Notes: generated by a model from the sequence alone, not told the origin. Shown: positions 10,377-26,795, counted from the first letter of the stretch. The stretch is DNA of 64,000 nucleotides from an uncultured Selenomonadaceae bacterium (GCA_905234705.1 CAJOIB010000010.1:6616-70615); one strand, 5' to 3'. Program-made: numbers and translations.

Positions 10377-10827
10377 GCGTCATGGCAATTTCGTCGCAGT
10401 TAGGGAATTTTTGACACTCAATGCAATCTGTCCAAATTTTGTGCGGTAAAGTTTCACGCGGCACGGTTATAAAACCCAGGCTTTGAAAAAATTTCGGCTG
10501 ATAGGTAAGCGTAAAAAATTTCTTAACACCAACTGCGAGCCCAACTTCAATTAAGCGCTTGACGATTTCGCCGCCGATACCTTGACGGTGAAAATCTTGG
10601 TGAACAGCCATTGAACGAATCTCGGCAAGTTCATTCCAAGTCGTGTGCAACGCGCCGCAGCCTACGATTTTGCCGCTGTCAATTTCCTCGGCAACAAAAA
10701 ATTCGCGCAGGATTTCATAAAGTACGTTGTGCGTTTTCGGGAGCATTAAGCCCTGCGTAGCGTAGCCGTTTATCAGATTAAAAATATCTTCAACGTCAGC
10801 GAAAGTGGCGGGTCTGTACTTAAACAA
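10348..10827 (-). CDS. GNAT N-acetyltransferase (amino-acid N-acetyltransferase/ArgA-like short form)
   Basis: Sequence ...GCGALHTTWNELAEIRSMAVHQDFHRQGIGGEIVKRL... contains the acetyl-CoA motif Q/RxxGxG. C-terminal segment is LPHKIWTDCIECQKFPNCDE. Confidence 0.75.
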   Translation of the reverse strand: MFKYRPATFADVEDIFNLINGYATQGLMLPKTHNVLYEILREFFVAEEIDSGKIVGCGALHTTWNELAEIRSMAVHQDFHRQGIGGEIVKRLIEVGLAVGVKKFFTLTYQPKFFQSLGFITVPRETLPHKIWTDCIECQKFPNCDEIAMTLETGEKYEK

Positions 10828-10886
10828 ATTTTCAACCTTCCTTGAATGTGTTATAATCTAAAAAAATTTAGGGGAGCTGATTTTTT

Positions 10887-11117
10887 ATGGCAGAATATTA
10901 TGAAGCGTGTCCGCGTTGCGGCAGGACTAATTTTGGCGAAATTTTACACTGCAAACGCTGCGGGACTGAATTTTGCACAGTTTGTATCGGCAAGCGCACT
11001 TTGCCCGACGGCACGAAATACGAATGTTGCCCGCGTTGCGGCGCTGAATACGACGAAGACGACGATACTATTTACGTTGTCGTTACCGAAAAGGAAAACG
11101 CGCGCAATAAGCGTTAA
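10887..11117 (+). CDS. Small double zinc-ribbon protein
   Basis: 76 aa with CPRCG...CKRCG...C..C...CCPRCG pairs. Preceded by an extended -10 (TGTTATAAT) and a GGGGAG RBS. Confidence 0.55.
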   Translation: MAEYYEACPRCGRTNFGEILHCKRCGTEFCTVCIGKRTLPDGTKYECCPRCGAEYDEDDDTIYVVVTEKENARNKR

Positions 11118-11737
11118 ACGTCAGCGGACGGGCAAATTTCATTGAGCGGGCAATCATAACATTTTGGACTGCGCGAAGTGCAAATTAATCTGCCGTGCCA
11201 AATGAGCCAATGATGCGAGTCCGACCATTTTTCCTTGGGAATAATTTTTTGCAAGCCGAGTTCGACTTCAAGCGGAGTTTCGCCCTCGGCTAATTTCATT
11301 CTATTGGCAAGTCTGAAAACGTGCGTATCAACGGCAATGGCGGGAATTTTAAACGCAACGCTGGCAATGACATTCGCAGTTTTCCGCCCGACGCCAGGAA
11401 GTTTTATCAGTTCGTCAAAATCAGCCGGAACTTCGCCGCCATATTCGCGCAGGAGCATTTCACTCGCGCCGATAATATGTTTAGCCTTCGAGCGAAAATA
11501 GCCGCACGGTCTGATAATTTCTTCCAATTTGCTTTGCCCAAGCGCAATAATTTTCTCGGGCGTATTGGCGATTGGAAATAATTCCTGCGTCACGATATTA
11601 ACGCGCTTATCCGTACATTGCGCCGATAAAATCACCGCTACAAGCAATTCAAAAGTCGAACCAAATTTTAATTCCGGAATTGCGCCTTTGTAAGTTTCTT
11701 CCAAAATTCGCAGTTCCTCAATCTTAAAATCTTCCAC
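11114..11737 (-). CDS. nth: Endonuclease III (DNA glycosylase/AP lyase)
   Basis: FELLVAVILSAQCTDKRVN..., the HhH-GPD segment LPGVGRKTANVI, and the C-terminal 4Fe-4S motif CTSRSPKCYDCPLNEIC. Confidence 0.9.
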   Translation of the reverse strand: MEDFKIEELRILEETYKGAIPELKFGSTFELLVAVILSAQCTDKRVNIVTQELFPIANTPEKIIALGQSKLEEIIRPCGYFRSKAKHIIGASEMLLREYGGEVPADFDELIKLPGVGRKTANVIASVAFKIPAIAVDTHVFRLANRMKLAEGETPLEVELGLQKIIPKEKWSDSHHWLIWHGRLICTSRSPKCYDCPLNEICPSADV

Positions 11738-11740
11738 AGC

Positions 11741-12187
11741 TCAGCCCTCGCGCGTAAAAACTAATTCCAAATATGGCAATTCTTTAAAACCAAGATTTTT
11801 ATAAACAGTCAGCGCCTTTGAATTGTCGTGCTCCGCCTCAAGCCGCAAAATCTTATCCGGATAAATCTCCTTGACGTACTGAAGAAATTTCGTACCTAAG
11901 CCGCGCCCGCGATATTCCTGCTCAATAAAAATATCTTCAATCCAAATGCATTCGCCGCCAAATTCGGTGGAATAACTTTTCGCAAGCATACCGTAGCCGA
12001 TAATTTTTTCCGCGTCAACAAAAACAAAGCCTTCAATAAACGCCGAGCCGCTTAAACAATTTTCAACATTCGCCGCGTAAATTTTTTCAGAGCCATTCGT
12101 TATCAGCGCGGGCGAATTGTAAAATCTGCGCATCATTCCTAAAACCGCGTCAGCATCTTCGCGCAGGATTTTTCTAATTTCAAACAT
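11741..12187 (-). CDS. GNAT family N-acetyltransferase
   Basis: 148 aa. IEDIFIEQEYRGRGLGTKFLQYV is the acetyl-CoA binding motif. Confidence 0.75.
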   Translation of the reverse strand: MFEIRKILREDADAVLGMMRRFYNSPALITNGSEKIYAANVENCLSGSAFIEGFVFVDAEKIIGYGMLAKSYSTEFGGECIWIEDIFIEQEYRGRGLGTKFLQYVKEIYPDKILRLEAEHDNSKALTVYKNLGFKELPYLELVFTREG

Positions 12188-12188
12188 T

Positions 12189-13550
12189 TTAATTCGTCAA
12201 ACTCCTAACCGGCGCAGGAATACGCCCGCCGCGCGCAATAAACGCTTCACTGCTCCAATTATTTCTAATGGGAACAATCGGACAATAGCCCAGCAAGCCG
12301 CCAAATTCAACCACATCGCCAACTTTAGCATTCGGCACGGGAATTATCCGAACAGCGGTAGTTTTATTATTGACAACGCCAATAGCCGCCTCGTCAGCAA
12401 TAATGCCGCTCAAAGTCGCCGCGCTGACATCGCCCGCAACCGCGATCATATCCAAACCAACGCTACATACACACGTCATAGCTTCAAGTTTCTCAATAGA
12501 CAGACTGCCGATATTCACGGCGTTAATCATACCTTCGTCTTCACTGACGGGAATAAACGCGCCGCTCAAACCGCCAACGTGCGAGCTAGCCATTAAGCCG
12601 CCTTTTTTAACAGCGTCATTTAACAAAGCAAGAGCCGCAGTCGTACCAGGCGCACCGCAAGCCTCTAAGCCCATTTCTTCCAAAATGCGCGCGACCGAAT
12701 CACCAACCGCCGGAGTCGGCGCAAGCGATAAATCCACAATTCCAAATTGAACACCCAAACGCCGCGACGCTTCCTGCGCGACAAGTTGACCAACGCGAGT
12801 AATTTTAAACGCAGTCTTTTTAATCGTCTCGGCAATTTCAGTAAAATTCGCGCCCTTCAAATCTTCCAGCGCGTGTTTGACAACGCCAGGACCGCTGACG
12901 CCCACATTGATAACAGTATCAGCTTCGCTCACGCCGTGAAACGCGCCCGCCATAAATGGATTGTCATTCGGCGCATTGGCAAAAATTACCAGCTTAGCAC
13001 AACCAATAGCCTGTTTGTCGCGCGTCAATTCAGCTGTGCGTTTCAAAATTTCGCCCATCTCGCGCACGCAGTCCATATTTATGCCCGCCTTAGTTGACGC
13101 CAAATTGACTGAGCCGCAAACTAAATCTGTCGTTGCTAATGCTTGCGGAATTGACTCAATCAAAATCCTGTCGCCGCGCGTGTAACCTTTCTCAACCAGC
13201 GCGCTGAATCCGCCAATAAAATTTACTCCAACTTCCTTAGCCGCCTTGTCAAGAGTTTCAGCAATCGGAACGTAGCTGTCAGTTTTGCAGGAATCCGCCG
13301 CAATGGCTATCGGCGTCACGGAAATTCGCTTGTTGATAATCGGCACGCCATATTCCGCTTCAATATCTTCGCCGGTTTTTACGAGAAATTCAGCAGTCTT
13401 TGTAATTTTATCATAAACATTCCGGCAAAATTCGTGAAGATTAGGGTGCGCGCAGTCTCTCAAAGAAATTCCCATTGTTATCGTCCGCACGTCTAATTTA
13501 TTTTCAGTTATCATTCGGTTTGTTTCAAGTATATCTTCAATCGTTATCAA
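12189..13550 (-). CDS. UPF0210 / DUF711 (PFL-like) family protein
   Basis: [27 protein letters not shown]...[11 protein letters not shown]...GGFSALV...VGLDMIAV. I chose the TTG at 13550 because GGGGG lies 7 nt upstream. The track ORF extends to 13727. Confidence 0.8.
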
Positions 13551-13692
13551 AGTTTCAGCCCCCGTCAAAAATTTATCTTCAAATTCTATCAAAAAGTTAT
13601 TCAAAGTCAAGAAACATTTTAACTTGATTTTTGCGCGCGCGGTAATTAAAATATATGGAGTTTTTTTATAAATTGTCGAGGTGGTATTATTC

Positions 13693-14070
13693 ATGGGACA
13701 TCCTGTAACAACAAACCCGTTAATCATTATGCTGATTAATATGACGGTGGTATTCGTCGTGCTGGTTTCGCTAAGTGTATTGATTAATTTGATTCACATG
13801 GTAGATCCGACGAAACAGCCGGAAGTCAAAGAAGACGAAGGCGAAGCGGAAACAGCGGCGATAGTATCAAAATTGCAAGCCGCGCCAAAAGTTGAGCCCG
13901 AACCCGCGCCGGTTGTCGAAGAGGGCATACCGCCTGAAGTTATCGTTGCAATTTCGGCGGCTATTGCGTGTTGCGGAATTTCCGGCAATGTTCGCGCAGT
14001 GCGTGTTGTCAATAATAATAAATCCGCGTGGCGGCAAAATGCGCTCAACAGCGGCTTGACGAACGTTTAA
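13693..14070 (+). CDS. Na+-translocating decarboxylase small (gamma/delta, OadG-like) subunit
   Basis: N-terminal TM helix ([25 protein letters not shown]) followed by an Ala/Pro/Glu-rich linker. It sits directly upstream of the beta-subunit gene. Confidence 0.65.
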
Positions 14071-16296: not shown

Positions 16297-19248
16297 ATGC
16301 AGAAAAATCTTACCACCGCGGAAAAAATTTCTGATTTGTTGCAGAGCCATTCAAATTTGGAAATTTCTAATCCGTACAGTTTGAAAAGCGACGAACTTGA
16401 AGCCAACGAAATTTGCTTTTACAAAATAAATCTGCTGACATTCGACGAAGAATATCCGCACCGCGAGGCGTTTGAAAATGTTTTGCAGAGCCTTGACAAT
16501 GCGGCTTTTAATTTCGTGTACATTCTCAGCGGCGACGAGCGCGGCATCGAACTTTATATCGGCGTGGTGAAAAATCACAACGAAAATCAGCCCGTCCTCG
16601 GCAAACTTTTGAACGCGGCGAATTACGGAAAAAATATCGCGGGCGCATTTGCGGGGAATTTCGGCGGCAGTTCCCTTGAAAAATTAACCGGTCAAAATTT
16701 GACAAACGCCGTGATAAATTCTGCGCGACAATTCAAAAACGCGGGCGTCATTGTCGGTATCCCGTCCGTCAACGAAACCAAGGACAGCAAATACGGTTTC
16801 CAGGGGATTGACAGGCTGATAAACAGTATGCTCGGCGCGAAATGGCGAATTGTGGTTGTTTGCGAGCCGGTGAATAAATCTGAAATTGCGAAAATCCGCA
16901 GCGAAGTTTACAATCTTTACAATGAATTAGCGCCGCTCGCCCGTCAATCCGTTCAAAAATCTACCAGCAGTAATCAGACGCTGAGCCGCGGCACAAACGA
17001 ATCTACCACTAAGGGCACGAATTATTCTGACAGCGAAAGTTCGTCCGATTCGCACGGCAAACAAAATGATAATTCAAATTCGAGCCACTCCGACCAGACA
17101 AGCAAATCTTACGGCGAAAGTACGACAAAAACCACCGGCAGCAATGAAAGTACCGGCGTCAGTTCCGGCAGTTCGAGCGCGGTTACTTTGGAAATTGCGA
17201 ATAAGCAGGCGGCGGAAATTATTGACTACATCGACAATGAACTTTTGGAGCGCGTGAAAATCGGATTCAGCCGCGGCTTTTTCAAAACTTCGATTTATTA
17301 TATGGGCGAAAAGCCGATTGACGCCGAGCGCCTCAAAGTTGGAATTATTTCGTTGTTTCAAGGCAGCGGCTCATCGTATAGTCCGTTGCGCGCGTATCCG
17401 CTGAATGTCGAGCGCGATTTTAAAATTTTAAACAGTTACCAAAGTTTTTACATCAGCAATGAAAATAATTTGCCAGAAAAATTGACGCTGGCGAGCCGCC
17501 CGCATTTTGACAGCCGCCTTGGTTTGAATACCTATTTGACGTCGGGCGAAGTCAGCCTAATCGCTGGTTTGCCGCAAAAAGAAATTCCTGGTATCACCGT
17601 GAAGGAGAGCGTCGAATTTGGTTTGAATTTTAATCAGAGCGACGGCGAGATTATTTTGGGCAATTTGATTCAGAAGGGGCGCGAATTGCCTAGCATTCCA
17701 ATGAAAATCAGCCGCGAAGTTTTGAGCAAACACGTCTTTATTGCTGGCGTGACTGGTTCGGGCAAAACTACGACCTGCCACAAAATTTTGACGGAAGCCG
17801 CGGTTAAATTTTTGGTGATTGAGCCTGCGAAAACTGAATACCGCGCGCTGATAAATTCGCCGCATTTCGGCAACGTCGTTGTCTTTACGGTGGGCGACGA
17901 ATTGACCGCGCCTTTTCGGTTGAATCCGTTTGAATTGGTGCGCGGCGAAAGTGTTTCTGCTCACGTCGATATGTTGAAGGCTACGTTTACTTCGTCTTTC
18001 CCAATGGAAGCGTCGATGCCGCAGATTTTGGAAGAGGCGATTTACAAAATTTACGAAGACAAGGGCTGGGACATTGACACAAATAAAAATTATCTGATTG
18101 AGGCGCGCGCCGATTATAAAATTGGTGATGAATTTCGCGCAGAATTTGATACTTTTCCGACGCTGACTGATTTTTTGACGGCGCTTGAAAAAATTGTTGA
18201 CGAAAAAGGATTTAGCGACCGCCTGCGCGACGATTATCGCGGCTCACTGATTAGCCGGTTTTCCAATTTGACGAAAGGCTCAAAGGGCGCGCTTTTCAAC
18301 TGTCGCCGCTCGATTGATTTTGAAAAACTGATTAATCAAAACGTCGTCATTGAAATGGAAAATTTGAAATCGGCGGAAGATAAGGCGCTGTTAATGGGAT
18401 TTATTTTAACGCGGCTGGCGGCGGTTATCAAACGGCGAAACAAATTGGATAAAAATTTCCGGCACATAACGCTGATTGAAGAGGCGCACCGGCTTTTATC
18501 GAAAGTTGAATTAGGCGACGGCGGCTCAAAGCGGACGGCGGTTGAAACTTTCACAGATTTACTCGCGGAGATTCGCAAGTACGGCGAAAGTCTGATAATC
18601 GTTGACCAGATACCGAATAAACTTGCGCCCGAAGTTTTGAAAAATACCAACACGAAAATAATTCACCGGCTTTTTGCGCGCGACGACAAAGAAGCGGTTG
18701 GTGATACGATGCTGATGGACGACAAGCAGAAAGAATATTTATCGGCGCTGGAAACTGGGCAGGCGATTATTTTTAGTGAAGGAATGCGCCGCCCCGCGCA
18801 CGTCAAGATTCAGAGCGTGACGGATACCGGCGACAGCGTTGTTGACAATGACGCCGTTAAATCGCAGTTTGTCAAAAATTTTGGCGCGTGGTATTGCGAT
18901 TTGGAAATTTCGCGCAGGTTTAATCGGGCGGTTTATGATTTGCTGAAAAAAATTGCGGTTGAATATCTCGACAAAAATTCATTGGAAATTGAAACTTTAA
19001 ATGCTGTGGCGAAAATTCGCTCGGCTGTGAAAAATTTCTGCGCGACTTTCGATTTTGAAGAAATTGCGGCGGCTGACGTTACGAAATATCTTGCGGAAGA
19101 ATTTACAAGACTCAAAGCAGGTGATAAAATTTTTGAACGGCGGCTTGAGAATTTTCTGAATTTGCTGATTGGCGATTTTACTTTGGAAAAAATTTCGGGT
19201 GACAGGGAAAATTTGAAGTTGCTGATAAATATTAAACGAGAATTTTAA
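16297..19248 (+). CDS. Large HerA/FtsK-superfamily (DUF87-like) ATPase with an unknown N-terminal domain and a Ser/Thr-rich linker
   Basis: 983 aa. Walker A is IAGVTGSGKTTT (about nt 17744-17776). Walker B/sensor is HITLIEEAHRLL (about nt 18463-18492). The HerA-type C-terminal block is LAEIRKYGESLIIVDQIPNKLAPEVLKNTNTKIIHRLFARDD. Residues ~215-300 are low-complexity Ser/Thr/Asn (GTNESTTKGTNYSDSESSSDSHGKQNDNSNSSHSDQTSKSYGESTTKTTGSNESTGVSSGSSS). Confidence 0.7.
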   Translation: MQKNLTTAEKISDLLQSHSNLEISNPYSLKSDELEANEICFYKINLLTFDEEYPHREAFENVLQSLDNAAFNFVYILSGDERGIELYIGVVKNHNENQPVLGKLLNAANYGKNIAGAFAGNFGGSSLEKLTGQNLTNAVINSARQFKNAGVIVGIPSVNETKDSKYGFQGIDRLINSMLGAKWRIVVVCEPVNKSEIAKIRSEVYNLYNELAPLARQSVQKSTSSNQTLSRGTNESTTKGTNYSDSESSSDSHGKQNDNSNSSHSDQTSKSYGESTTKTTGSNESTGVSSGSSSAVTLEIANKQAAEIIDYIDNELLERVKIGFSRGFFKTSIYYMGEKPIDAERLKVGIISLFQGSGSSYSPLRAYPLNVERDFKILNSYQSFYISNENNLPEKLTLASRPHFDSRLGLNTYLTSGEVSLIAGLPQKEIPGITVKESVEFGLNFNQSDGEIILGNLIQKGRELPSIPMKISREVLSKHVFIAGVTGSGKTTTCHKILTEAAVKFLVIEPAKTEYRALINSPHFGNVVVFTVGDELTAPFRLNPFELVRGESVSAHVDMLKATFTSSFPMEASMPQILEEAIYKIYEDKGWDIDTNKNYLIEARADYKIGDEFRAEFDTFPTLTDFLTALEKIVDEKGFSDRLRDDYRGSLISRFSNLTKGSKGALFNCRRSIDFEKLINQNVVIEMENLKSAEDKALLMGFILTRLAAVIKRRNKLDKNFRHITLIEEAHRLLSKVELGDGGSKRTAVETFTDLLAEIRKYGESLIIVDQIPNKLAPEVLKNTNTKIIHRLFARDDKEAVGDTMLMDDKQKEYLSALETGQAIIFSEGMRRPAHVKIQSVTDTGDSVVDNDAVKSQFVKNFGAWYCDLEISRRFNRAVYDLLKKIAVEYLDKNSLEIETLNAVAKIRSAVKNFCATFDFEEIAAADVTKYLAEEFTRLKAGDKIFERRLENFLNLLIGDFTLEKISGDRENLKLLINIKREF

Positions 19249-19264: not shown

Positions 19265-19900
19265 ATGTCAATTTTTGGAGCAATTTTTTCTGGGATAAGT
19301 AGCGTGCTGAGCGTAGTGTCAAATGTATTCACGCCGATTTTGACGAAAATTCTTGGACCGGCGCTTGAGAAACTTGGGCGGGCGTTTGAGGCTTTTTTCA
19401 AAGAATTGGGGTTGATTGAGCCGGAAGAGAAAGTTGAAGAAATTGGAGACCGCGCATTGCAGGCGGAAGTCGACGAAATTCATCCGGTTAAAATTGAAAC
19501 TTTCGACAATCACGAAAAATATTTGGCGGCGCTCAAAGAATATGAGCCGAGCGCTGAAAAATCCGCGCTGATTCCGGTTGACGATAAACTTCACAAAGGG
19601 CTTGAGGTTTTAATGGGGCTGGCGATTTCGCGCTACGGGCAGTCTATGAGCGAATTTGGGCAGATTATTTTGAATAACCCCGAATTTTACAGTCAATTTG
19701 GCAGGCTGGCGGAAATTGGCAGTATCGCCCGCGATAAAACTGAAACTTTCGCCGATATCGTGAATTACATTGCGGGCAAAAGTATGAGCAGCGAAAAAAC
19801 TGACACGGCGATTGACGCGCTCGTTGACATTGAGAAAAAAGTTAATCCGGAGGCGACTGACGCTGAAATTTTGAAAACTGTTAGCGATTTGAAAAAGTGA
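19265..19900 (+). CDS. Hypothetical protein with small-residue-rich hydrophobic N-terminus
   Basis: 211 aa. The N-terminus is MSIFGAIFSGISSVLSVVSNVFTPILTKILGPAL (Gly/Ser-zipper-like), followed by an acidic helical region. A GGGGGA RBS lies 16 nt after the upstream stop. Confidence 0.6.
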   Translation: MSIFGAIFSGISSVLSVVSNVFTPILTKILGPALEKLGRAFEAFFKELGLIEPEEKVEEIGDRALQAEVDEIHPVKIETFDNHEKYLAALKEYEPSAEKSALIPVDDKLHKGLEVLMGLAISRYGQSMSEFGQIILNNPEFYSQFGRLAEIGSIARDKTETFADIVNYIAGKSMSSEKTDTAIDALVDIEKKVNPEATDAEILKTVSDLKK

Positions 19901-20373
19901 GGCGATTGATTTTGTTGCAATATTTTTTAGTTATCTGCAAAAATCGGTTTTACGTTTACCGAACTGACGGCGCGCCGGAATATTTTGGTGGCAATGATTA
20001 TTTTGAATATGAGCAGAGCAAGATTCGCGAGGCGGCGGCTCAACTTGTCGAGGAAATTTTGAGCAACAACAATCTTGCCGACAGAAACGAATTACAATTT
20101 GCGCTGATTGAGAATAGCGACGCCGTGCGCAATGAGATTGTGCTGAAGGAACTGAAGAATTTGGTAGTTCAGCGTTACGCGGTGAATGATTTAGTTTACG
20201 CGGCGATGGTTGATTTGGCTAAAAATCCTGCGCTGTACATTCGCGAATTGGGCGTAAATTATGACGGCGAAAGTCACCATTTGGACGCGAATAATCCGAT
20301 GTGGCGGGGCGCTTATAGTTTGCTGGCGTTGACGATTGAGCCGATTGAATTGTTAAAGCGCGTGGGGAGGTAG
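19897..20373 (+). CDS. Hypothetical protein
   Basis: 158-aa ORF. Its GTG start overlaps the upstream stop (GTGA). No family recognised. The start codon is uncertain. Confidence 0.5.
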   Translation: MRRLILLQYFLVICKNRFYVYRTDGAPEYFGGNDYFEYEQSKIREAAAQLVEEILSNNNLADRNELQFALIENSDAVRNEIVLKELKNLVVQRYAVNDLVYAAMVDLAKNPALYIRELGVNYDGESHHLDANNPMWRGAYSLLALTIEPIELLKRVGR

Positions 20374-20377
20374 TTTT

Positions 20378-21922
20378 ATGGAAAAGATTATTTGTGGCAA
20401 ATGTCACGCCGAGAATAATGCAAAGCGGCATTTCTGCGCGAAGTGCGGGGCTTTTCTGCACACGGATTTTGACGCGAAAGTTTATGCGTTGCCGGAAGTT
20501 AAAATGATGCGCGTTGTGGAAAATTTATTGCGAGTTCCGCACCAGCCAATAAATTGGGACGACGTGACGGACGCTTACACGGCGAAGGCTGAAAAATGGC
20601 AGGCGCTGTTCAATGTCCCTGGAATGGGCGCGGAAACAAATTCTGCGGTTGTCGAGAAGATTGAAGATTTTTTGAATCTGTGCCGCAATGCCGATTTTCA
20701 AATTGCGTTCGTCGGTACGATTAAAACGGGCAAATCGACGCTGATAAATGCGCTGTTAGGCAAAGAATACGCGTCAATGGACGTGACGCCGGAAACCGCC
20801 GCTTTGACGAAATTTCGTGCCAGCCCGCGCGATTATGTTGACGTGACTTTTTACACGCAAAAGGAATGGGACAACCTTTGGGCTTCGCGCTCCAAGGACG
20901 CAACCGATTTTATGAAGGAATACGAATTGCTTGACGGCGATTCGCAAAAATCTAAATGGATTAATCAGCCGCAGCGCCATATCGAAATGGCTAACGAAGA
21001 TATTCAGCAGGAATTAAAAATTTGGTCGAGTTCACAGCGGGTGGAACATTATTTCGTCAAGGAAATTGAAGTTGGAATTTCGACGTTGCCGCGGGATTTT
21101 CCGGCGCAGGTTGTATTCGTCGACACGCCAGGATTATCAGATCCGGTTGCATATCGTTCGGAGCTGACGAAAAATTATATCCGGCGGGCAAATGCGGTTT
21201 TCGTTTGCGTCGAGGCGCAGAAAATGATGTTCGAGGAAATGAACACAATCCAATCGGTAATGTCGCTGTCTTCGCACGACAAGAGCAAAGTTTTTGTCAT
21301 AGCCACGCACTGGGACACATTGCACGACCCAGAAACGGATTGGGCAAAGCAGAAAAATTTTTACATTCGGCGCTTAACCGGACCGGCTTTTTATGACAAT
21401 CAGCAAATGGCGGCGGATAATATTTTGTATTCGGCGGCGTACATTTATAATCTGTGCAAAAATTTTCACGCGCTCGACCCGAATAACAGGGCTGATAAGC
21501 GGCAGATTCGCACGCTTGAAGATTTCGGCGATTATTTTGACTGCGCGCCCGACGATTTGCGGACGATTGGCGAAAAGACTAACATTGTGGCGATTAGGAA
21601 AATTATTCGCGACCGGCTCGCGGCGAATTATAAAAAATTTTTGGCGGGCGATATTAAGCGGAAATTTATGGACGTGAATTTTAATCTGAATCGCGTTGCC
21701 AGCGAAAATAAAGCGAGTATGATTGAGCGCTTAACGGCGTCCTATGCTGACGAACAAGAATTAGCCGCGAAATTGGATGAACAGCGCAAAAAATGCGATA
21801 ACGTCCGGCAAGTTTCCGACCAGCTTAACGAAATTATGAAGAAGGTTAAGCACAAGACTAAAACGCGCGCCGATGTTATTTGCGGGAAATTGCGGCTGAA
21901 ATTGAGCGAGTCGAAAAAATGA
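20378..21922 (+). CDS. Dynamin-like GTPase with N-terminal zinc ribbon
   Basis: Zinc ribbon is [20 protein letters not shown]1 is [16 protein letters not shown] (about nt 20714). G2-region Thr is [10 protein letters not shown]3 is [10 protein letters not shown] (about nt 21121). G4-like is VIATHWD. The C-terminal tail is helical and charged. Confidence 0.75.
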
Positions 21923-22863
21923 GCGCGGCTATAACTTTGCAGGAAATTTCTGCTAAATTGGATTATGGGCTGATAGGCGACGGCGCTTTGAAAGTTTCAG
22001 CGTTTAAATTTGCCGCGGAAGCTGATGAAAATTCTTTAGCGGTAGTACTCAGCGATAAAGAGGCGATTGACACTGCGGCGCGTGCGGTATTGACGACGCC
22101 GAGGATTTTGCCGATTGATAAAACTTTTCTGTACTGCAATTTTAAAAAGATGAGCGCGGCGATAGTTGACGTTGCGCGGCTGATGATTGACGCCGGAATT
22201 TATCCCGATTATGAAAAAAATTTTGAGCAGGTTGAAAAGCACTGCGCGATGTTCGGTAAAAATTTTGAGATTGGTGAAGGCAGTTACGTTGGCGCTTTTG
22301 CAAATATCGGCGAAAATGTTAAAATTGGCAGGAATTGTAAGATTGGCGCGGGCGTTTATATCGGCTCTGACGTTGAGATTGGCGACGGCGTGAAAATTCA
22401 TTCTGGCGCGCGGATTGGCGCTAATTGCCATTATCATTTTACGCAACACCACAAGCAGAAAAGTTTTTGCGGGATTGGGCGGGCGCTGATTGAAGATGGC
22501 GTTGAAATTGGCTACAACACGGTGATTCAGCGCGGCTCTTTGTCCGATACCGTGATTGGCGCGGGTACGATTATTGGCAATTTGGTTGAGATTGGACACG
22601 ACGTAAAAATCGGCAAAGATTGTTTGATAGTTTCGCAGGCGGGCATATGCGGCGGCGTGGAGATTGGCGAACGGGTTCAGATTTACGGGCAAGTTGGAAT
22701 TGCTGACAGGGTTAAAATTGGCAGCGACGCAACGATTATGGCGAAATCCGGCGTTACCAAAGACATTCGCGCAGGGCAAGTTGTTTCGGGAATGTTCAGC
22801 CGCAGTCATTTAGACGAATTGAAACGGCAGGCGAAATTTAGGAAACTGACTAAGGGGGAATAG
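21919..22863 (+). CDS. LpxD-like left-handed beta-helix N-acyltransferase (out of lipid A context)
   Basis: The ATG overlaps the dynamin-like stop (ATGA). It has an LpxD-type N-terminal domain ([43 protein letters not shown]), hexapeptide repeats, a conserved catalytic-His context ([10 protein letters not shown]) and an LpxD-type C-terminal helix ([17 protein letters not shown]). Confidence 0.7.
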
Positions 22864-22866
22864 ACT

Positions 22867-23658
22867 ATGGGCGGAGGCGGTGGCTGCGGAGATATTTGTT
22901 GCATTACGCATTGCGGCTTTTGCTGTGTTTTTAAATGCAGTGACTGCGGCGATTGTTGCGTGGGTCATTGTAGCGGAGATTGTGGCGGTACTCGTGTTTC
23001 CAGTGGCGGTGGCGGTTGTTCTGATTATCAAGAAGATCCGCAAACTCGGCACGCGGAGATTATTGCTAACGAATTGGCGGAAATGAAGAAGCGCTCGACT
23101 GAGGACGCCAAACGCGAAGAGGACGCCATTCTCAAAGACATTAACGAAACCATGGACGAATTTATTGATTGGCTCAAAAAAATTAACAGCGAACCGTACG
23201 GCGGGCGCAGTCTGAATATTAATATCACGAAAATTAATGAGCTCAATGAAGAATTGCGAAACGCGGTTATCGGCTCAATCGGCAAACATTTGGATTCTAA
23301 GCTGGTTATGACTGACGAAAACGTCAAGCTGATTCTTTCCGATATGAATGATAAGACGCGCAAGAAAAAATTTGACGAGTTTTATCGGCAAACTCTGCGC
23401 GACGCTATTAGGAATTTGATTAAAATTATTGAAGATTCCGTTCAAAAACAATCTGAGAGTATCGAGCGCGAAATTCAAAATCGCATTAATGAAGTCCAGC
23501 AAAGTATGTCCGAAGAGGCGGGCGCGTTTGAGGAACTTCAGCAGATTAAACAGCAGAAAAATTTAGGTATGGCGGAAAAACGCGTTGAATATATGTACTA
23601 CGAAAATCTGTGCGATATTATGTTCGACCAGCTGAAACTTTCCGGCATTAAAAGGTGA
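22867..23658 (+). CDS. Cysteine-string / coiled-coil protein
   Basis: 263 aa. The N-terminus is MGGGGGCGDICCITHCGFCCVFKCSDCGDCCVGHCSGDCGGTRVSSGGGGCSDY, with 13 Cys in 51 residues. The remaining ~200 aa are charged heptad-like helices. An AAGGGGG RBS lies 8 nt upstream. Confidence 0.7.
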   Translation: MGGGGGCGDICCITHCGFCCVFKCSDCGDCCVGHCSGDCGGTRVSSGGGGCSDYQEDPQTRHAEIIANELAEMKKRSTEDAKREEDAILKDINETMDEFIDWLKKINSEPYGGRSLNINITKINELNEELRNAVIGSIGKHLDSKLVMTDENVKLILSDMNDKTRKKKFDEFYRQTLRDAIRNLIKIIEDSVQKQSESIEREIQNRINEVQQSMSEEAGAFEELQQIKQQKNLGMAEKRVEYMYYENLCDIMFDQLKLSGIKR

Positions 23659-23664
23659 TTCGCT

Positions 23665-25011
23665 ATGCTCAATTTAATTTCCGGAAATGAAAATATTCTT
23701 GCGCTGATGTACGCTATGTCGAGCGATTTGGATTTGAAAGATAATTCCGCGCGTTTGGAAAATCTTCGCGCAGTGGTGGAAAATTCGGCGGAAGTCAAGC
23801 CGTCGGTTTTCAATTATCACGTCGAGGCGGCGGAAAAAATTTTGATTTACAATACGCTTTACAATTCAATGACTTGGTTAACGAAAGAGGAATTTGCTCA
23901 ACTTGGCGGCGAAATTTTTGATGACGAATTGCGGCGGAATTTTCTTGAGAGCGGAATTTGCGTGGCGGCGAATGTTGACGAGCGGGCGAATTATCATAAG
24001 TGGCGGATTCTTTTTCAAAAAAAGTCCGAGCATTTGTCGGTGAATATTACCACGACGCTGAAATGCAACGCGCGCTGTCCCTATTGCTACGAGCACGGCG
24101 TCAAGCACATTGACTTTGATGACACTAAGATTGACGCGCTGATAGATTTTATTAAGCGGCACAAAAAAAATTCGCCGGTTAAACTGAATTGGTTTGGCGG
24201 CGAACCTTTTATGAATCCGAAAATTATTGACACCGTGACGCGGCGGCTCGGCGAAATCGGCTTTCCATTTTTCTGCTACGCCATTACCAACGGAAATTTA
24301 TTGACGCGGCAAATGATTAATACCAAATTCAAGCAATGGCATATTCGCGGCGTTCAGATAACTTTGGACGGCACGGCGGAACAATACGCGGCGCGCAAAA
24401 ATTATACCGGCAATCAGCGCGATGTTTTCAAAAAAATTTTAAATCGTATTCAATGGCTCGCTGAAGCAAATATTCACGTTGACGTGCGGCTGAATATCGA
24501 CCGCCAAAATCTGTGCGATATGCTCAATCTTATTTACATTTTGCAGGCGCGTTTTGACGGCGAAAAAAATATTTGTTATTATCCGGCGTTTGTTACGGGC
24601 TTGCAGGATAAATTGACTGAAACTGAGAAATTAGATTTTGTCAAGGAAATGTTTAACGCGGTTGCCAATTCCGCCAAACTCAGCATTACAAATCGGCTGT
24701 ATTCTTTCCCGCGCAGTATTCCGTGTATGCGCAATGATCCGCAGTCATTTTCTGTTGATGTTTACGGGCGGATTTATAATTGTGAGCATTTGGTCGGGCG
24801 CGCTGAAAAATCGTTAGGAACTTTAAAACGTTTGCCGACAAAAATTAATGACGCGCGGCTTGAAGAAAATCTGCGCGAGGAATGCGGAAGTTGCGTATTT
24901 CTGCCGAAATGTATGGGCGGCTGTGCGTCGAATTTGGAAACCGGCGATAGCGCGTGCCTGATTGAAAAATATTTAATTAAAGCATATATGCAGTATATGT
25001 GCGAACGCTAG
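23665..25011 (+). CDS. Radical SAM enzyme with C-terminal SPASM domain (peptide/protein maturase type)
   Basis: The CxxxCxxC motif is CNARCPYC (nt 24064-24087). The SPASM motifs are CMRNDPQSFSVDVYGRIYNC (Cx13Gx4C) and CGSCVFLPKCMGGC (Cx2Cx5Cx3C). The N-terminal ~110 aa resemble the RRE/PqqD-like leader-binding region of such maturases (ILIYNTLYNSMTWLTKEEFAQL...LESGICV). Confidence 0.85.
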   Translation: MLNLISGNENILALMYAMSSDLDLKDNSARLENLRAVVENSAEVKPSVFNYHVEAAEKILIYNTLYNSMTWLTKEEFAQLGGEIFDDELRRNFLESGICVAANVDERANYHKWRILFQKKSEHLSVNITTTLKCNARCPYCYEHGVKHIDFDDTKIDALIDFIKRHKKNSPVKLNWFGGEPFMNPKIIDTVTRRLGEIGFPFFCYAITNGNLLTRQMINTKFKQWHIRGVQITLDGTAEQYAARKNYTGNQRDVFKKILNRIQWLAEANIHVDVRLNIDRQNLCDMLNLIYILQARFDGEKNICYYPAFVTGLQDKLTETEKLDFVKEMFNAVANSAKLSITNRLYSFPRSIPCMRNDPQSFSVDVYGRIYNCEHLVGRAEKSLGTLKRLPTKINDARLEENLREECGSCVFLPKCMGGCASNLETGDSACLIEKYLIKAYMQYMCER

Positions 25012-25020
25012 GAGGTAAAA

Positions 25021-25383
25021 ATGGACGACATTGCAAAAATTTTGGAACAGCAGGAAGAAATTTTACGCTCAATACACCGGCTGGAGGAAGAAGTTAGCCT
25101 AATCAAATTTTTACACCACAGTCAGTACGACGAAACAAATGCGCGGCTTGAAATGTTCGAGCGGTCATTGCGGCAAATCGACGAACAACTTGCACTTTCA
25201 AATATGAGCCAAGAATCGCGCGACGACAAAATAAAAAAATTGCTTAGTGAATTTCAGCGTGCGAATCAATCGCGGCGGCTGAATATGATTGAAGAATTGC
25301 TCCGGTTAATCGCCGCCAATCAGATAATGGATTCGCTCGAACCGCCGAAAAAACCGCGGGGCAATAAATCGCAGAAAAAATAA
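25021..25383 (+). CDS. Small coiled-coil protein, hypothetical
   Basis: 120 aa, predicted helical and charged (ILEQQEEILRSIHRLEEEVSLIKF...), with a basic tail (PPKKPRGNKSQKK). An AGGAGG RBS lies upstream. Confidence 0.55.
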   Translation: MDDIAKILEQQEEILRSIHRLEEEVSLIKFLHHSQYDETNARLEMFERSLRQIDEQLALSNMSQESRDDKIKKLLSEFQRANQSRRLNMIEELLRLIAANQIMDSLEPPKKPRGNKSQKK

Positions 25384-25400
25384 TCTTGGGAGGAATTTTA

Positions 25401-26795
25401 ATGAGCATACTAGCTTCGGTCGTAGTACCGCACCCGCCTATCATTTTGCCGGAAATTGGCAAGGGCGAAGAATCCAAAATCGCCGCAACTACCGCCGCTT
25501 ATAAAGAAATTTCAAAGCGCGTGGTCGAACTTGCGCCCGATACGATTGTTATCACCAGCCCGCACTCGATTATGTACGCGGATTATTTTCACATTTCGCC
25601 TGGCGAATCGGCTAGCGGGAATATGGCGAGATTTCGCGCGCCCGAAGTCGATTTGACTATTAACTATGACGTTGAATTTGTTGACAAATTGAGCGCGGCG
25701 GCTATGGCTGAAAATATTCCCGCCGGTAAAATTGGCGAGCGCGAAAAAAGTTTAGACCACGGCACGATGATTCCGCTTTATTTTTTGGAAAAAGCAGGTT
25801 TAGATTTTGACGCGGTTAAATTTTTGCGCATAGGGCTTTCTGGTTTGCCCGCGGCGGCGCATTATCATTTTGGGCAGGTTATTTCAAAGGTTGCGGACGA
25901 ATTGAACAGGCGCGTTGTATTCGTGGCGAGCGGTGACCTTTCGCACAAACTCAAAGCGGATGGTCCTTACGGTTTTGTTGAAGAAGGTCCGAAATTCGAC
26001 GCCGAGGTTATGGAAAATTTATCCGACGAAGATTTTTTGAAATTGTTGACGATGGATAATACGATGTGCAATCGCGCGGCTGAATGCGGCTTGAGGAGTT
26101 TTTGGATAATGGCGGGCGCGCTCGATAAAAAATCCGTTCAAGCTGAAAAATTGTCCTATGAAGGACCTTTCGGCGTTGGCTACGGCGTTGTTTGGTTTAA
26201 CATTAACGGCGTTGACAGTTCGCGGAATTTTGCCGCCAAGCTTGAAAATTTTAAGCATGAAGAATATTTAAAGCGCATTGAAACTGAAGACGAATACGTG
26301 AAACTGGCGCGCTACAGCCTTGAAACTTACATTAAGACGCACAAGGCGGCGGAAATGCCCAAAGATTTGCCTGCTGAAATGTTGAATCGGCGTTCGGGAA
26401 CTTTCGTCAGTCTTCATAAAGACGGGAATTTGCGCGGCTGTATCGGAACATTTTTGCCGACAACTGAATCTATCGCGCAGGAGATTTTGCAAAACGCCAT
26501 TTCTGCCTGTTCGAGAGACCCGCGCTTTTCGCCGGTCGAAGAATCCGAAATTGAAGACCTTGACATCAGCGTTGACGTTTTGTCTGAACCGGAGCGAATT
26601 TTTGACGTCAAAGATTTGGACGCAAAAAAATACGGCGTTATCGTCGAGAACAACGGACGCCGCGGTTTATTGTTGCCGGATTTGGAAGGCGTTAATACCG
26701 TGCAAGAGCAACTCGCCATCGCTATGAAAAAAGGCGGTATCCCCGCCAATGAAAAAGTTAACGTGTGGCGTTTCCAAGTAATTCGCCATCATTAA
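25401..26795 (+). CDS. Fusion of class III extradiol dioxygenase-like (LigB/Memo superfamily) domain and AMMECR1 domain
   Basis: N-terminal domain: VVPHPPIILPE...ITSPHS...SLDHGTMIPLYFL...VASGDLSHKL. C-terminal AMMECR1 domain: SGTFVSLHKDGNLRGCIGTF...ACSRDPRFSPV...YGVIVENNGRRGLLLPDLEGV. Start set at the ATG at 25401 after a GGGAGGA RBS. Confidence 0.8.
   Translation: MSILASVVVPHPPIILPEIGKGEESKIAATTAAYKEISKRVVELAPDTIVITSPHSIMYADYFHISPGESASGNMARFRAPEVDLTINYDVEFVDKLSAAAMAENIPAGKIGEREKSLDHGTMIPLYFLEKAGLDFDAVKFLRIGLSGLPAAAHYHFGQVISKVADELNRRVVFVASGDLSHKLKADGPYGFVEEGPKFDAEVMENLSDEDFLKLLTMDNTMCNRAAECGLRSFWIMAGALDKKSVQAEKLSYEGPFGVGYGVVWFNINGVDSSRNFAAKLENFKHEEYLKRIETEDEYVKLARYSLETYIKTHKAAEMPKDLPAEMLNRRSGTFVSLHKDGNLRGCIGTFLPTTESIAQEILQNAISACSRDPRFSPVEESEIEDLDISVDVLSEPERIFDVKDLDAKKYGVIVENNGRRGLLLPDLEGVNTVQEQLAIAMKKGGIPANEKVNVWRFQVIRHH

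Follow-up and report, generated by a model that had tools for sequence, protein, structure and literature searches.

We found that a cysteine-string protein and an adjacent radical SAM/SPASM enzyme (rSAM) form a gene pair in a 64,000-nucleotide stretch of DNA (the window) from an uncultured Selenomonadaceae bacterium, and we propose that the rSAM probably cross-links, through thioethers, the leaderless N-terminal Cys string of this full-size cytoplasmic protein and so turns it into a membrane-interacting module. If true, RiPP-type radical SAM/SPASM thioether chemistry would extend to a full-size cytoplasmic protein, here in an N-terminal segment that lacks a leader, and the rSAM would have to recognise its target without one. 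A swap between an amphipathic helix and a Cys string with its maturase, seen in both directions, provides a testable hypothesis of function, namely membrane binding, which is rare for orphan rSAM systems. The analysis also defines a sizeable unannotated family whose members, in anaerobes of the rumen and gut, partner bacterial dynamin-like GTPases, enzymes whose roles in the cell are little understood so far. Peptide and protein engineering could possibly make use of a leaderless cross-linking tag at the N-terminus.

The Cys-string protein (22867..23658, + strand, 263 aa) has the N-terminus MGGGGGCGDICCITHCGFCCVFKCSDCGDCCVGHCSGDCGGTRVSSGGGGC and belongs to a family of ~240-aa dynamin-associated proteins. 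An earlier note on this DNA had described 13 Cys within residues 7-51 (22885..23019, + strand), and all were recovered at the positions listed there (7, 11, 12, 16, 19, 20, 24, 27, 30, 31, 35, 39 and 51); a further Cys outside the string is C249. Given a background Cys frequency of 1.19%, calculated from 23 long ORFs of the window, the probability of at least 13 Cys in 45 residues is 4.9e-15. The two series 12-16-20-24 and 27-31-35-39, the CGD(I)CC(I/V)xHC duplication, the Gly runs and the five CGD/CSD/CSGD units are likewise present as described. The ATG is the first start codon past an in-frame stop, so no leader is possible before the Cys cluster, in agreement with the note, and a Shine-Dalgarno sequence (GGGGGA) lies 8 nt 5' of it. 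In the AF2 model, residues 58-258 are predicted to form long helices and residues 1-53 to be disordered, including the string, the putative substrate region of the rSAM. Inspected by eye, the MGGGGGC start carries no lipobox lipoprotein signal, being without an n-region or h-region, and CxPxR, the anSME-type target, is absent from the string. The Cys-string N-termini matched no NCBIfam model even at E <= 10.

The rSAM (23665..25011, + strand, 448 aa) starts 6 nt past the Cys-string stop codon and was classified as a radical SAM/SPASM enzyme from NCBIfam and Foldseek. It contains the CX3CX2C radical-SAM cluster motif CNARCPYC (C134, C138, C141; 24064..24087, + strand) and a SPASM domain with seven Cys (C354, C373, C407, C410, C416, C420, C431; 24724..24957, + strand), spaced as C354-x13-G-x4-C373 and C407-x2-C-x5-C-x3-C420, then C431. 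Both motifs had been pointed out before, and all of their Cys proved invariant in 15 and 19 homologues in two alignments (A5 and A6). The Pfam Radical_SAM match was 5.5e-12, and the TIGR04085 SPASM domain scored 39.1 bits against a cutoff of 27. The AF2 model of the enzyme (pLDDT 89.5) places a beta3/alpha3 domain at the N-terminus, with strands at 44-73 and helices at 74-120. CteB was both the best fold match by Foldseek (E 1e-16, full length, 444-468 columns) and the best sequence match among solved structures (E 2.6e-8). Judged by this predicted fold and the CteB alignment, the N-terminal region that the note had called RRE-like is predicted to be an RRE, a winged-helix peptide-recognition domain, and the top HMM alignments take it in. 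An RRE normally binds a leader, which the Cys-string protein does not have.

Neither the Cys-string protein nor the rSAM fits a curated family. The best NCBIfam matches of the rSAM are maturases of Cys-rich peptides: CefB (141.3 bits), Clo7bot (135), TIGR04463 (129), geopeptide (125) and PapB (96.7), all below cutoff. Specifically, the equivalog cutoffs for CefB and for the uncharacterised Clo7bot, TIGR04463 and geopeptide maturases are 400-600, with our enzyme far below. An identity as CefB (NF038107, the "Cys-every-fifth" maturase) was rejected against its 600-bit cutoff and for want of a CefA precursor match in the strings; the family described here has a five-residue Cys period in half its repeats, and a literature search found no publication on CefA/CefB. 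We also rejected identities as the ranthipeptide maturase PapB (NF047865, cutoff 340 bits), as a SCIFF maturase (TIGR03974, 42 bits versus a cutoff of 425) and as QhpD (TIGR03906, 47 bits versus a cutoff of 453), the last with no qhp genes nearby, the neighbors being dynamin, left-handed beta-helix (LbH) and HerA genes. The enzyme does not group with anSME, a grouping that the note had named as speaking against its reading: it scored 47.1 bits for TIGR03942 (cutoff 349) against 141 for CefB, and anSME, which has no RRE, was only the fifth-best fold match. The CXXX-repeat target family mentioned in the note was not recovered either. It lies outside the 25 best NCBIfam matches, which puts its E value above 9e-10, compared with 4e-41 for CefB, and the repeat period here is 5 or 8 rather than 4.

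The two genes are linked by their distribution across homologous loci. The rSAM lay downstream of 33/33 distinct N-termini with at least three Cys and of none of the four distinct Cys-free N-termini (L022, L029, L031 and L042), the latter being counted only if at least 2 kb of downstream DNA was available (Fisher p = 1.5e-5, not corrected for phylogeny). The dynamin, LbH and HerA genes persist in these four loci. Two Cys-free outgroup loci (L060 and L061) are also without the rSAM, two loci with three Cys only (L041 and L025) still keep it, and a Cys-rich ORF, whose absence would have counted against the note's reading, was present in every homologous rSAM locus. From locus to locus, the Cys protein and the rSAM lose identity to their counterparts in the window in parallel. 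A rough NJ tree suggests one gain and one nested loss, with Cys and rSAM concordant in both; the members of the clade that lack both form a single nested group, so the independent evolutionary events are few. These patterns agree with the functional tie between enzyme and Cys cluster that the note had put forward. From the gene distributions, an enzyme-substrate pairing appears well supported, and the perfect co-occurrence gives indirect support to modification of the neighboring Cys-rich sequence by the rSAM; we infer the direction of dependency between the two, the type of cross-link and the acceptor residues.

Clustered at 50% identity, the family of the helical protein comprises at least 322 clusters; its members are ~240 aa long, all-helical, cytoplasmic and encoded next to a dynamin-like GTPase. 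The first 25-50 residues form a variable module that is hydrophobic or amphipathic. Distant members have here either an amphipathic helix or a segment that is rich in Gly/Ala and transmembrane-like; Cys-free relatives keep the helical body and have a different N-terminus, of the MGFWGSLWSGIKKVAK-, MGFFKSLKNTIGRGIGKALEKIGE- or MGAVGKVVTAVAVGVVAAGAIIAKK-type. In the clade of the window protein, the module is a Cys string of C-C-[V/I]-G-[D/N] units, and it is in precisely this clade that the CteB-like rSAM gene follows. Across 99 unique N-termini, the conserved unit was C-C-[V/I]-x-[D/N], with successive CC pairs 5 (88 cases) or 8 (86 cases) residues apart. The Cys, the beta-branched residue at +2 and the D/N at +4 are conserved, C-x3-[D/N] occurring in 85% of units, and position +4 is D in 46% and N in 39% at the family level. 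In the window protein, the +4 residues of the CC units are H/K/H rather than D/N, so a single fixed acceptor rule fails. The CXXX register described in the note does not hold for the family; in the window protein it is a by-product of an 8-residue CCxxxCxx unit.

Both types of module reach similar hydrophobicity, with Kyte-Doolittle maxima (19 residues) of 1.2-2.1 versus 0.4 in the helical body, and intermediate members have both a short Cys string and an amphipathic segment, NPIGDFFRDIF. A G-C-[GS]-Y-H-P-G-P-S segment is conserved after the string; its YHPGPS part is present in Cys-free members too and is therefore not specific to rSAM recognition. In three loci (L009, L012 and L020), a single ORF encodes the LbH enzyme together with a coiled-coil paralogue and an N-terminal module that contains Cys, and a fourth (L013) has the same in-frame arrangement with its upstream part lost at the contig end; all four contain the rSAM. 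Given these fusions, the Cys-string module is, on the sequence comparison, portable.

Several known systems resemble parts of this pair. CteB, the partner of the SCIFF peptide CteA in Clostridium thermocellum (PDB 5wgg, 5why), is a sactipeptide-type thioether synthase that shares with the rSAM the N-terminal RRE, the barrel and the 7-Cys SPASM domain, and a Cys-rich sequence would be the substrate in both cases. However, SCIFF is a ~45-aa peptide in which a leader precedes a six-Cys core at the C-terminus, whereas the Cys region of the window protein is at the extreme N-terminus of a leaderless 263-aa protein. A short RiPP with leader and C-terminal core (ranthipeptide, sactipeptide or SCIFF) was rejected for this reason. 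Among the NCBIfam matches of the rSAM, PapB/PapA (freyrasin, a ranthipeptide) is the nearest family with experimental characterisation. PapB joins Cys to Asp or Glu by a thioether in Cys-X3-Asp motifs and tolerates Cys-Xn-Asp for n from 0 to 6 (PMC9413430); the CGD, CSD and CSGD units in the window protein fall within this range. The family repeat has C-x3-[D/N] spacing; unlike in PapA, position +4 carries Asn about as often as Asp, and the core lies at the N-terminus of a large protein and has no leader. For modification at the level of a protein, the nearest precedent is QhpD, an rSAM/SPASM enzyme that introduces Cys-to-Asp/Glu thioethers into a protein subunit, QhpC of quinohemoprotein amine dehydrogenase, rather than into a secreted peptide, though QhpC itself is small and periplasmic and has a leader.

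Based on these likenesses, we envisage that the rSAM binds the helical protein, possibly via the conserved post-string segment, which would serve as a "follower" rather than a leader, as family knowledge suggests. The enzyme would then join Cys sulfurs to backbone or side-chain carbons in sactionine- or ranthionine-type thioethers, as CteB and PapB do, and cross-linking would turn the N-terminus, disordered and rich in thiols, into a compact hydrophobic head. This head would replace the amphipathic helix of the relatives, so that the helical protein is attached to or inserted into the membrane at which the dynamin-like GTPase works. The LpxD-like enzyme would likewise be brought to the membrane in those loci where it is fused to a second copy of the module. 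We infer both the chemistry on the string and the membrane role: cross-linking of the string is most likely because, in the loci recovered, the rSAM is found only beside Cys-bearing members, and the role as a membrane head is suggested by the evolutionary swap of amphipathic helix and Cys string. The arrangement here, a short hydrophobic or amphipathic N-terminus on a long helical body working with a dynamin, resembles N-terminal membrane-targeting modules (the amphipathic helices N-BAR H0, PspA/Vipp1 alpha0 and Arf, and eukaryotic cysteine-string/palmitoyl anchors), and the Cys-free relatives carry such helices; this is a functional analogy only, with no homology found. DHHC and NMT enzymes are not known in these bacteria. 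BAR-like Foldseek matches of the helical body were non-significant (E >= 0.06), and a Pfam search of the ORF gave no PspA_IM30 match and no J domain. Homology to PspA/IM30/Vipp1 was rejected at an hhalign probability of 0.3% (against a manually entered PspA sequence), with no PspA/Vipp1 among the 50 Foldseek PDB matches listed.

The Cys string could instead be a metal or Fe-S module: it might sense redox state, buffer metal in the manner of a metallothionein, or donate electrons or clusters to the rSAM, whose substrate would then lie elsewhere, e.g., in a lipid or in what the LpxD-like enzyme produces. The 13 Cys with several CxxC pairs (CGFC, CSDC, CGDC) would suit such a role, and the co-loss of Cys and rSAM is symmetrical: the same pattern is expected if the string serves the enzyme. 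GDGT-MAS (7tol), a lipid-modifying SPASM-type rSAM, is also among the weak PDB matches. Against this, the number of Cys per string varies from 3 to 14 and their spacing is 5, 8 or other, which leaves no fixed ligand set, and minimal variants have only CC and one further Cys. The His residues, which the note had stressed together with the Cys, are not conserved. The residues that are conserved between the Cys are hydrophobic (V/I/F), unlike in metallothioneins, AF2 predicts no ordered fold for the string, and the nearest HMM and fold relatives of the rSAM are RRE-bearing maturases of Cys peptides. We therefore consider a metal or Fe-S module unlikely.

The Cys-string and rSAM genes are part of a 7-9 gene cassette, which the note does not mention, in the order HerA-like ATPase, two small proteins, dynamin-like GTPase, LpxD-like acyltransferase, Cys-string protein, rSAM and small coiled-coil protein, which we recovered in ~50 loci from rumen and gut anaerobes. 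One carrier, Mitsuokella jalaludinii DSM 13811 (L018), is cultured and permits direct testing of our proposal. In the window, all genes of the cassette lie on the + strand. The first encodes a 983-aa HerA/FtsK-like ATPase with a Ser-rich linker (16297..19248; Pfam DUF87, partial NCBIfam HerA/CedD and partial PADLOC mad8/HerA matches) and precedes the Cys-string gene in most of the loci that reach far enough. It is followed by a 211-aa protein with a hydrophobic N-terminus (19265..19900), which is sometimes duplicated, and a 158-aa protein (19897..20373); the cassette positions of both are conserved, and neither had a match in Pfam, NCBIfam, PADLOC or PHROG. The dynamin-like GTPase (20378..21922, 514 aa; Pfam Dynamin_N 2.3e-19, Zn_Ribbon_1, weak LeoA/LeoBC) has an N-terminal zinc ribbon and is the most constant partner of the helical family, including its distant Cys-free relatives. 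The LpxD-like LbH acyltransferase (21919..22863) is given a TTG start (21880) in the ORF list but probably begins at the ATG at 21919, in an ATGA overlap with the dynamin stop. This overlap and the gaps of 3 nt (acyltransferase stop to Cys-string ATG) and 6 nt (Cys-string stop to rSAM) make a tight operon. The LpxD-like protein just passed NF002060 (210.8 bits, cutoff 207) and failed TIGR01853 (197, cutoff 242.5), and its best PDB match was LpxD (2iu8). The gene is always in the cassette and never in an lpx cluster.

The acyltransferase raises the possibility of a lipid anchor. In a bolder reading, which we also regard as unlikely, the rSAM, possibly with the LpxD-like acyl-ACP transferase, would make the Cys string a cross-linked and perhaps lipid-bearing anchor that tethers the dynamin partner, and in some loci the acyltransferase as well, to the membrane, a counterpart of eukaryotic cysteine-string/acyl anchors in an unrecognised dynamin/HerA membrane-remodelling conflict system. 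Lipidation could also be the main event, with the LpxD-like enzyme acylating Gly2 or the Cys to give a counterpart of myristoyl/palmitoyl or cysteine-string anchors and the rSAM an accessory, e.g., for a thioether to the lipid. The LbH gene is translationally coupled to the Cys-string gene, lying directly upstream in nearly all cassettes, and some loci fuse its product to the Cys-string module. The enzyme has an invariant catalytic His, while the equivalents of H276 and D232 are lost and the C-terminal helix is shorter (compared with a manually entered E. coli sequence). In addition, ~90% of the helical family starts with MG, and FabD/G/F/Z-like genes lie near one locus. However, the LbH gene is kept in Cys-free loci and is thus independent of the Cys, one locus without LbH (L061) keeps the MG start, and one with LbH (L042) starts with MS. 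The retained LpxD N-terminal domain suggests a nucleotide-sugar-like substrate, and LbH enzymes are not known to acylate proteins. Lipidation as the main event is very unlikely on this evidence.

A classical RiPP, in which the N-terminal core is modified, cleaved and exported as a small thioether peptide with the 200-aa helical part as a giant follower or scaffold, would fit the likeness to RiPP maturases and a possible cleavage site in the conserved post-string segment, but we judge it very improbable because no protease or transporter/exporter is conserved in the cassette across the recovered loci, the body is the conserved part of its family and persists with non-Cys N-termini, the putative cleavage segment also occurs in Cys-free members and some loci join the module to an enzyme. 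In agreement with the note, the target of the rSAM appears to be a full-size helical protein rather than a short secreted RiPP.

As for the cellular setting in which the proposed cross-linked protein would act, the variable neighbors of the island include toxin-antitoxin genes, WYL-like regulators, NERD/UvrD helicases and an integrase, and the whole cassette may, more tentatively, resemble a mobile, fast-evolving conflict or defence island. Searches with PADLOC v2 gave weak or partial matches only: LeoA (3e-12), mad8 (3.5e-24), HerA (about 1e-20 to 2e-20 over the C-terminal third) and, for the rSAM, a pVip match (2.6e-17) confined to the generic rSAM core. The known anti-phage systems in PADLOC v2 (Eleos, HerA systems and prokaryotic viperins) were rejected, having no full-length component matches. 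Eleos (LeoA/LeoBC) and HerA defence systems share with the cassette a dynamin-like GTPase, a HerA-type ATPase and variable island neighbors; they differ in their other gene content, and PADLOC has no model for the Cys protein, the LbH enzyme or the small proteins.

Beyond the cassette, a LigB/AMMECR1 fusion (25386-26795) follows in the window and in its two closest relatives (L006 and L007) and in none of the other loci. A partnership of the AmmeMemoRadiSam kind was rejected because the fusion is not syntenic beyond these two and the rSAM is of the SPASM/RRE type. The last gene of the cassette itself encodes a 120-aa coiled-coil protein (25021..25383, + strand), with tblastn matches in L006-L013 and L020. 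In other loci, homologues or analogues of this gene lie 3' or 5' of the rSAM, and analogous small coiled-coil genes in L022, L024, L025 and L029 end in an LLLLNSVMEQI-like motif.

The open reading frame (ORF) at 22867-23658 (+) encodes a 263-aa protein that begins MGGGGGCGDICCITHCGFCCVFKCSDCGDCCVGHCSGDCGGTRVSSGGGGC, with 13 cysteines within residues 7-51 and a single cysteine, C249, in the remaining 212 residues. Because cysteine accounts for only 1.19% of residues across 23 long ORFs of the window, the probability of this enrichment arising by chance is approximately 5 × 10−15. The ATG is the earliest start codon following an in-frame stop, so a leader is impossible on this protein. It lies 3 nt past the stop codon of the preceding gene, which encodes an LpxD-like left-handed beta-helix acyltransferase (LbH), and a Shine-Dalgarno sequence (GGGGGA) is found 8 nt 5′ of it. 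A lipoprotein signal peptide was ruled out, as n- and h-regions are absent. Every sequence detail that an earlier note had listed for this Cys string and the neighboring radical SAM enzyme was found as described. The CXXX register that it proposed is present in the window protein, as part of an 8-residue unit, but does not hold across the family. Instead, 99 unique N-termini share the unit C-C-[V 69% / I 29%]-x(G 57%)-[D 46% / N 39%]-[C/F], with CC-to-CC distances of 5 residues in 88 cases and 8 residues, given by a CGF insert, in 86 cases.

We found no meaningful Pfam match and no NCBIfam or PHROG match to the protein; PADLOC returned only two marginal coiled-coil matches, and no NCBIfam precursor model matched the N-terminal string even at E ≤ 10. 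In an AF2 model, residues 1-53 are disordered and are followed by helices at 58-108, 120-157, and 162-258. Homology of this helical body to BAR domains was rejected (Foldseek E ≥ 0.06, TM about 0.2), as was homology to PspA/ESCRT-III (hhalign probability 0.3% against a PspA sequence).

Six nucleotides 3′ of the stop codon begins the ORF of the radical SAM/SPASM enzyme (rSAM; 23665-25011, +), which carries CNARCPYC and a complete seven-Cys SPASM pattern; these motif cysteines are invariant across 15-19 homologues. Though 63 NCBIfam models match this enzyme, all do so well below cutoff. The top scores belong to models for maturases that act on Cys-rich peptides: CefB (141 bits, cutoff 600), Clo7bot (135), TIGR04463 (129), and geopeptide (125), with the PapB model at 97 bits (cutoff 340). 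The earlier note had proposed checking the enzyme against SPASM subfamilies that included the CXXX-repeat, SCIFF, and QhpD-like types, and had named affinity to anaerobic sulfatase-maturing enzymes (anSME), together with a sulfatase substrate elsewhere in the genome, as evidence against a maturase of the Cys string. HMM scores were low for all of these (QhpD 47, anSME 47, and SCIFF 42 bits), and we rejected all four identities. The nearest solved relative by sequence is CteB, which is also the best Foldseek match to an AF2 model of the enzyme (pLDDT 89.5; E = 1 × 10−16; 444-468 columns aligned, with the N-terminal RRE covered), followed by TigE, anSME, SuiB, and SkfB. Given the HMM scores and the sequence and model matches, we predict that the enzyme belongs to a new subfamily of CteB-like RRE-rSAM-SPASM maturases. 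Its best 120 homologues all have at least 40% identity in their best local alignment, and the two that we looked up (L056/L057 and L058) lie in the same cassette, adjoining MGCCVGDCCVLDCGFCC... proteins.

Searches with the Cys protein yielded 83 homologues, 18 genome loci, and 29 metagenome loci, plus further contexts. We recorded, locus by locus, how the stand-alone family member begins and whether an rSAM gene lies downstream of it. The enzyme was present with 33 of 33 distinct N-termini holding at least three cysteines, and absent in all four cases in which a distinct Cys-free N-terminus was followed by 2 kb or more of sequence (Fisher p = 1.5 × 10−5, uncorrected for phylogeny). Two loci, L041 and L025, mark the minimum of three cysteines still accompanied by the enzyme. 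The Cys-free N-termini are MGAVGTIAAVAGGVLLAGKAIKGIKDIW... in L022, MGAVGDFIGNVAGGILDGVSAAGDFIGGVFGDLFGG... in L029 and L031, and MSTVVDTVKYAAEEIRDFFRYSLF... in L042; the ORF listings of these loci contain no rSAM gene, and their dynamin, LbH, and HerA genes are retained. In a rough NJ tree built on the helical domains, the Cys-free members of the clade form one nested group, within a subclade having just 3-6 cysteines along with an amphipathic stretch such as MGGCCVGNCCVMNNAVGDFFRDIF, and the outgroups lack both cysteines and rSAM. This pattern suggests a single gain and a single loss, each of them concordant for string and enzyme; with a single nested Cys-free group, three independent losses of the string and enzyme were rejected.

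An exhaustive profile search extended the family to at least 322 clusters at 50% identity. Nearer members begin with Cys strings, and farther members with either classic amphipathic helices (MGFWGSLWSGIKKVAKTVVSLFGF, MGFFKSLKNTIGRGIGKALEKIGE, and MGLFGWLKDKVEDAVDWVRDRI) or Gly/Ala-rich transmembrane-like segments (MGAVGKVVTAVAVGVVAAGAIIAKK and MGVGAILVGTVAAGAAVLGAKK). The Kyte-Doolittle maximum over 19 residues is 1.2-2.1 for Cys strings and most of their replacements, and only 0.4 for the helical body. Three contexts of amphipathic-type relatives were examined: L059 has three tandem paralogues without rSAM and starts at a contig end; L060 combines dynamin and LbH with two paralogues, HerA and rSAM not being seen; and in L061 dynamin is accompanied by two paralogues, and LbH, HerA, and rSAM were not seen. 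These contexts point to a dynamin-like GTPase and one to three helical proteins as what stays constant in the wider family; the HerA module, LbH, and the Cys-string/rSAM pair have been added to this core.

Modification of Cys-rich sequences by rSAM/SPASM enzymes is already known. Based on the chemistry of CteB and PapB, we propose that the enzyme would link the cysteines of the string as C-S (thioether) cross-links. PapB makes Cys-Asp/Glu links in Cys-X3-Asp motifs, with Cys-Xn-Asp spacings of n = 0-6 tolerated (PMC9413430), and so the C-x3-[D/N] units of the family and the CGD, CSD, and CSGD units of the window protein fall in its range. Recognition must differ from that of leader-dependent RiPPs; the conserved segment following the string, which is also present in Cys-free members, is a possible "follower" for recognition. 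Given the swap of N-termini, the cross-linked hydrophobic head would be the part of this dynamin partner protein that interacts with the membrane. That an rSAM/SPASM enzyme can act on a protein subunit is known from QhpD. What is new is a leaderless Cys string at the extreme N-terminus of a full-size cytoplasmic helical protein, its interchange with amphipathic helices in evolution, and its place in a dynamin-associated family and a cassette without earlier annotation; in the literature searched, we found no description of the cassette or of CefA/CefB.

The joint loss of cysteines and enzyme would be equally well accounted for if the string bound metal or Fe-S and the rSAM acted on something else. 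We consider this unlikely, as the number and spacing of cysteines are variable, the spacer residues are hydrophobic, histidines are not conserved, and the affinities of the enzyme are with RRE maturases. Less probable still is that LbH lipidates the N-terminus. Of the 240-aa proteins in the family, about 90% start with Met-Gly, whichever module follows. Yet L061 keeps this start while lacking an LbH gene, and N-acylation of Gly2 was therefore rejected as the main explanation; LbH also persists in Cys-free loci, which argues that it is independent of the cysteines. A cleaved, exported RiPP is very improbable, since the cassette has no conserved protease or exporter, the conserved part is the helical body, and some loci carry the module as a fusion to an enzyme.

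In such fusions the enzyme is LbH. A single 530-aa ORF in L009 (8378-9970) starts with MGGGGGCCVSNIENQCADCNFCCVGD... and continues through a coiled-coil paralogue into the LpxD-like enzyme. Equivalent ORFs are found in L012 (567 aa) and L020 (542 aa), whose N-terminal modules hold 9 and 3 cysteines, respectively, and L013 has the same in-frame arrangement, its upstream part lost at the contig end. All four loci have rSAM, and in L009, L012, and L020 the fusion is additional to a stand-alone Cys-string protein. The Cys-containing module thus behaves like a transferable N-terminal element, and its fusion takes the acyltransferase to wherever the helical protein is located. LbH just passed an NCBIfam subfamily model (210.8, cutoff 207), failed the LpxD equivalog (197, cutoff 242.5), and can be aligned to solved LpxD structures. 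In a comparison with an E. coli LpxD sequence, the catalytic H239 proved invariant, the equivalents of H276 and D232 are not retained, and the C-terminal helix is shorter. In the distant cassette of L024, FabD-, FabG-, FabF-, and FabZ/ApeP-like genes (10579-14009) lie two genes downstream of rSAM; the cassette could simply lie by chance next to a housekeeping fab cluster, or these genes could provide LbH with acyl groups as a dedicated source.

The window cassette, with genes called by simple ORF logic, is a tightly packed run on the + strand. It starts with a HerA/DUF87 ATPase (16297-19248), followed by two proteins unassigned to a family by our searches, p211 (211 aa, 19265-19900) and p158 (158 aa, 19897-20373), and by a zinc-ribbon dynamin-like GTPase (20378-21922). 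With its listed TTG start (21880), LbH would overlap the dynamin gene by 43 nt (21880-21922); the ATG at 21919 is the more probable start, because it forms an ATGA overlap with the dynamin stop and homologues begin there. The Cys-string protein and rSAM come next, and a 120-aa coiled-coil protein (25021-25383) ends the cassette. A long low-complexity linker rich in Ser, Thr, and Asn occupies roughly residues 220-300 of the HerA-like ATPase, which has partial matches to NF033849 "serine-rich protein" (160 bits, cutoff 650) and to PADLOC mad8. Promoter and terminator scans found 23 promoter-like sites (17.7 ± 3.7 expected from shuffling) and 25 terminator-like sites (20.7 ± 5.3), and are uninformative because both counts are within about 1.5 SD of expectation.

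Housekeeping genes lie on both sides of the cassette, namely those encoding oxaloacetate decarboxylase beta, a response regulator, and a LigB/AMMECR1 fusion, plus upp. The fusion, a 469-aa LigB/Memo-like and AMMECR1 protein (25386-26795, +; AmmeMemoRadiSam protein A, 133.7 bits), begins 2 nt past the last cassette gene. We place it outside the cassette, as, beyond the window, it adjoins the cassette in L006 and L007 only; an AmmeMemoRadiSam link of rSAM was rejected on this limited synteny, and the adjacent SPASM enzyme is not the usual radical-SAM partner of such fusions. L006, from a Selenomonadaceae metagenome-assembled genome (MAG) of reindeer rumen, is the nearest relative of the window. 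In L006 and L007, flanking genes are 92-99% identical to those of the window, compared with 86% and 74% for the Cys protein and 86% and 65% for the 120-aa protein, suggesting that the cassette evolves faster than its surroundings.

By tblastn, most loci with enough contig have the order HerA, p211, p158, dynamin, LbH, Cys protein, and rSAM, with an optional small coiled-coil gene between the last two; the HerA module is missing from a few (for example, L004). Host labels include Selenomonadaceae, Anaerovibrio, and the isolate Mitsuokella jalaludinii DSM 13811 (L018), and further MAGs are labeled Prevotellaceae, Fibrobacter, Eubacterium, Lachnospiraceae, and Bacteroidetes, though MAG taxonomy may be unreliable. 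Neighbors in other loci include integrase, Phd/ParE, AAA_14/DUF4143 ATPases, NERD/UvrD helicases, and putative regulators of 338-364 aa judged WYL-like by eye. Together with the patchy distribution and fast evolution, these neighbors suggest that the whole cassette may be a defense island. We found no relatives in INPHARED, PLSDB, or IMG/VR and no PHROG match with the small proteins, and PADLOC matches to known defense systems were partial only.

In the Cys-free loci L042 (9593-11562) and L029 (9250-10305), a downstream GTPase with a Gly-zipper C-terminus is accompanied by LRAT/NlpC-like proteins with a NCEHFALWCKTG motif and a putative regulator, WYL-like by eye, with a helicase-like gene also present in L042; this is company typical of defense islands. 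L053 (1-2300) holds a decayed cassette, its dynamin, LbH, and Cys-free family genes being split between several frames or broken by stop codons. In the distant cassettes of L004 (12886-14424), L050 (8662-9741), and L052 (2840-4333), rSAM is immediately followed by the gene for a second dynamin-like GTPase, suggesting a two-dynamin arrangement. Finally, small coiled-coil proteins of 120-312 aa are encoded beside the family gene in the window (25021-25383), L022 (10644-11582), L024 (8053-8499), L025 (3921-4451), and L029 (6745-7572). They share a C-terminal hydrophobic motif (for example, LLLLNSVMEQI, MRLLLINTILDCM, and LLRLIAANQIM) and occur both with and without rSAM.
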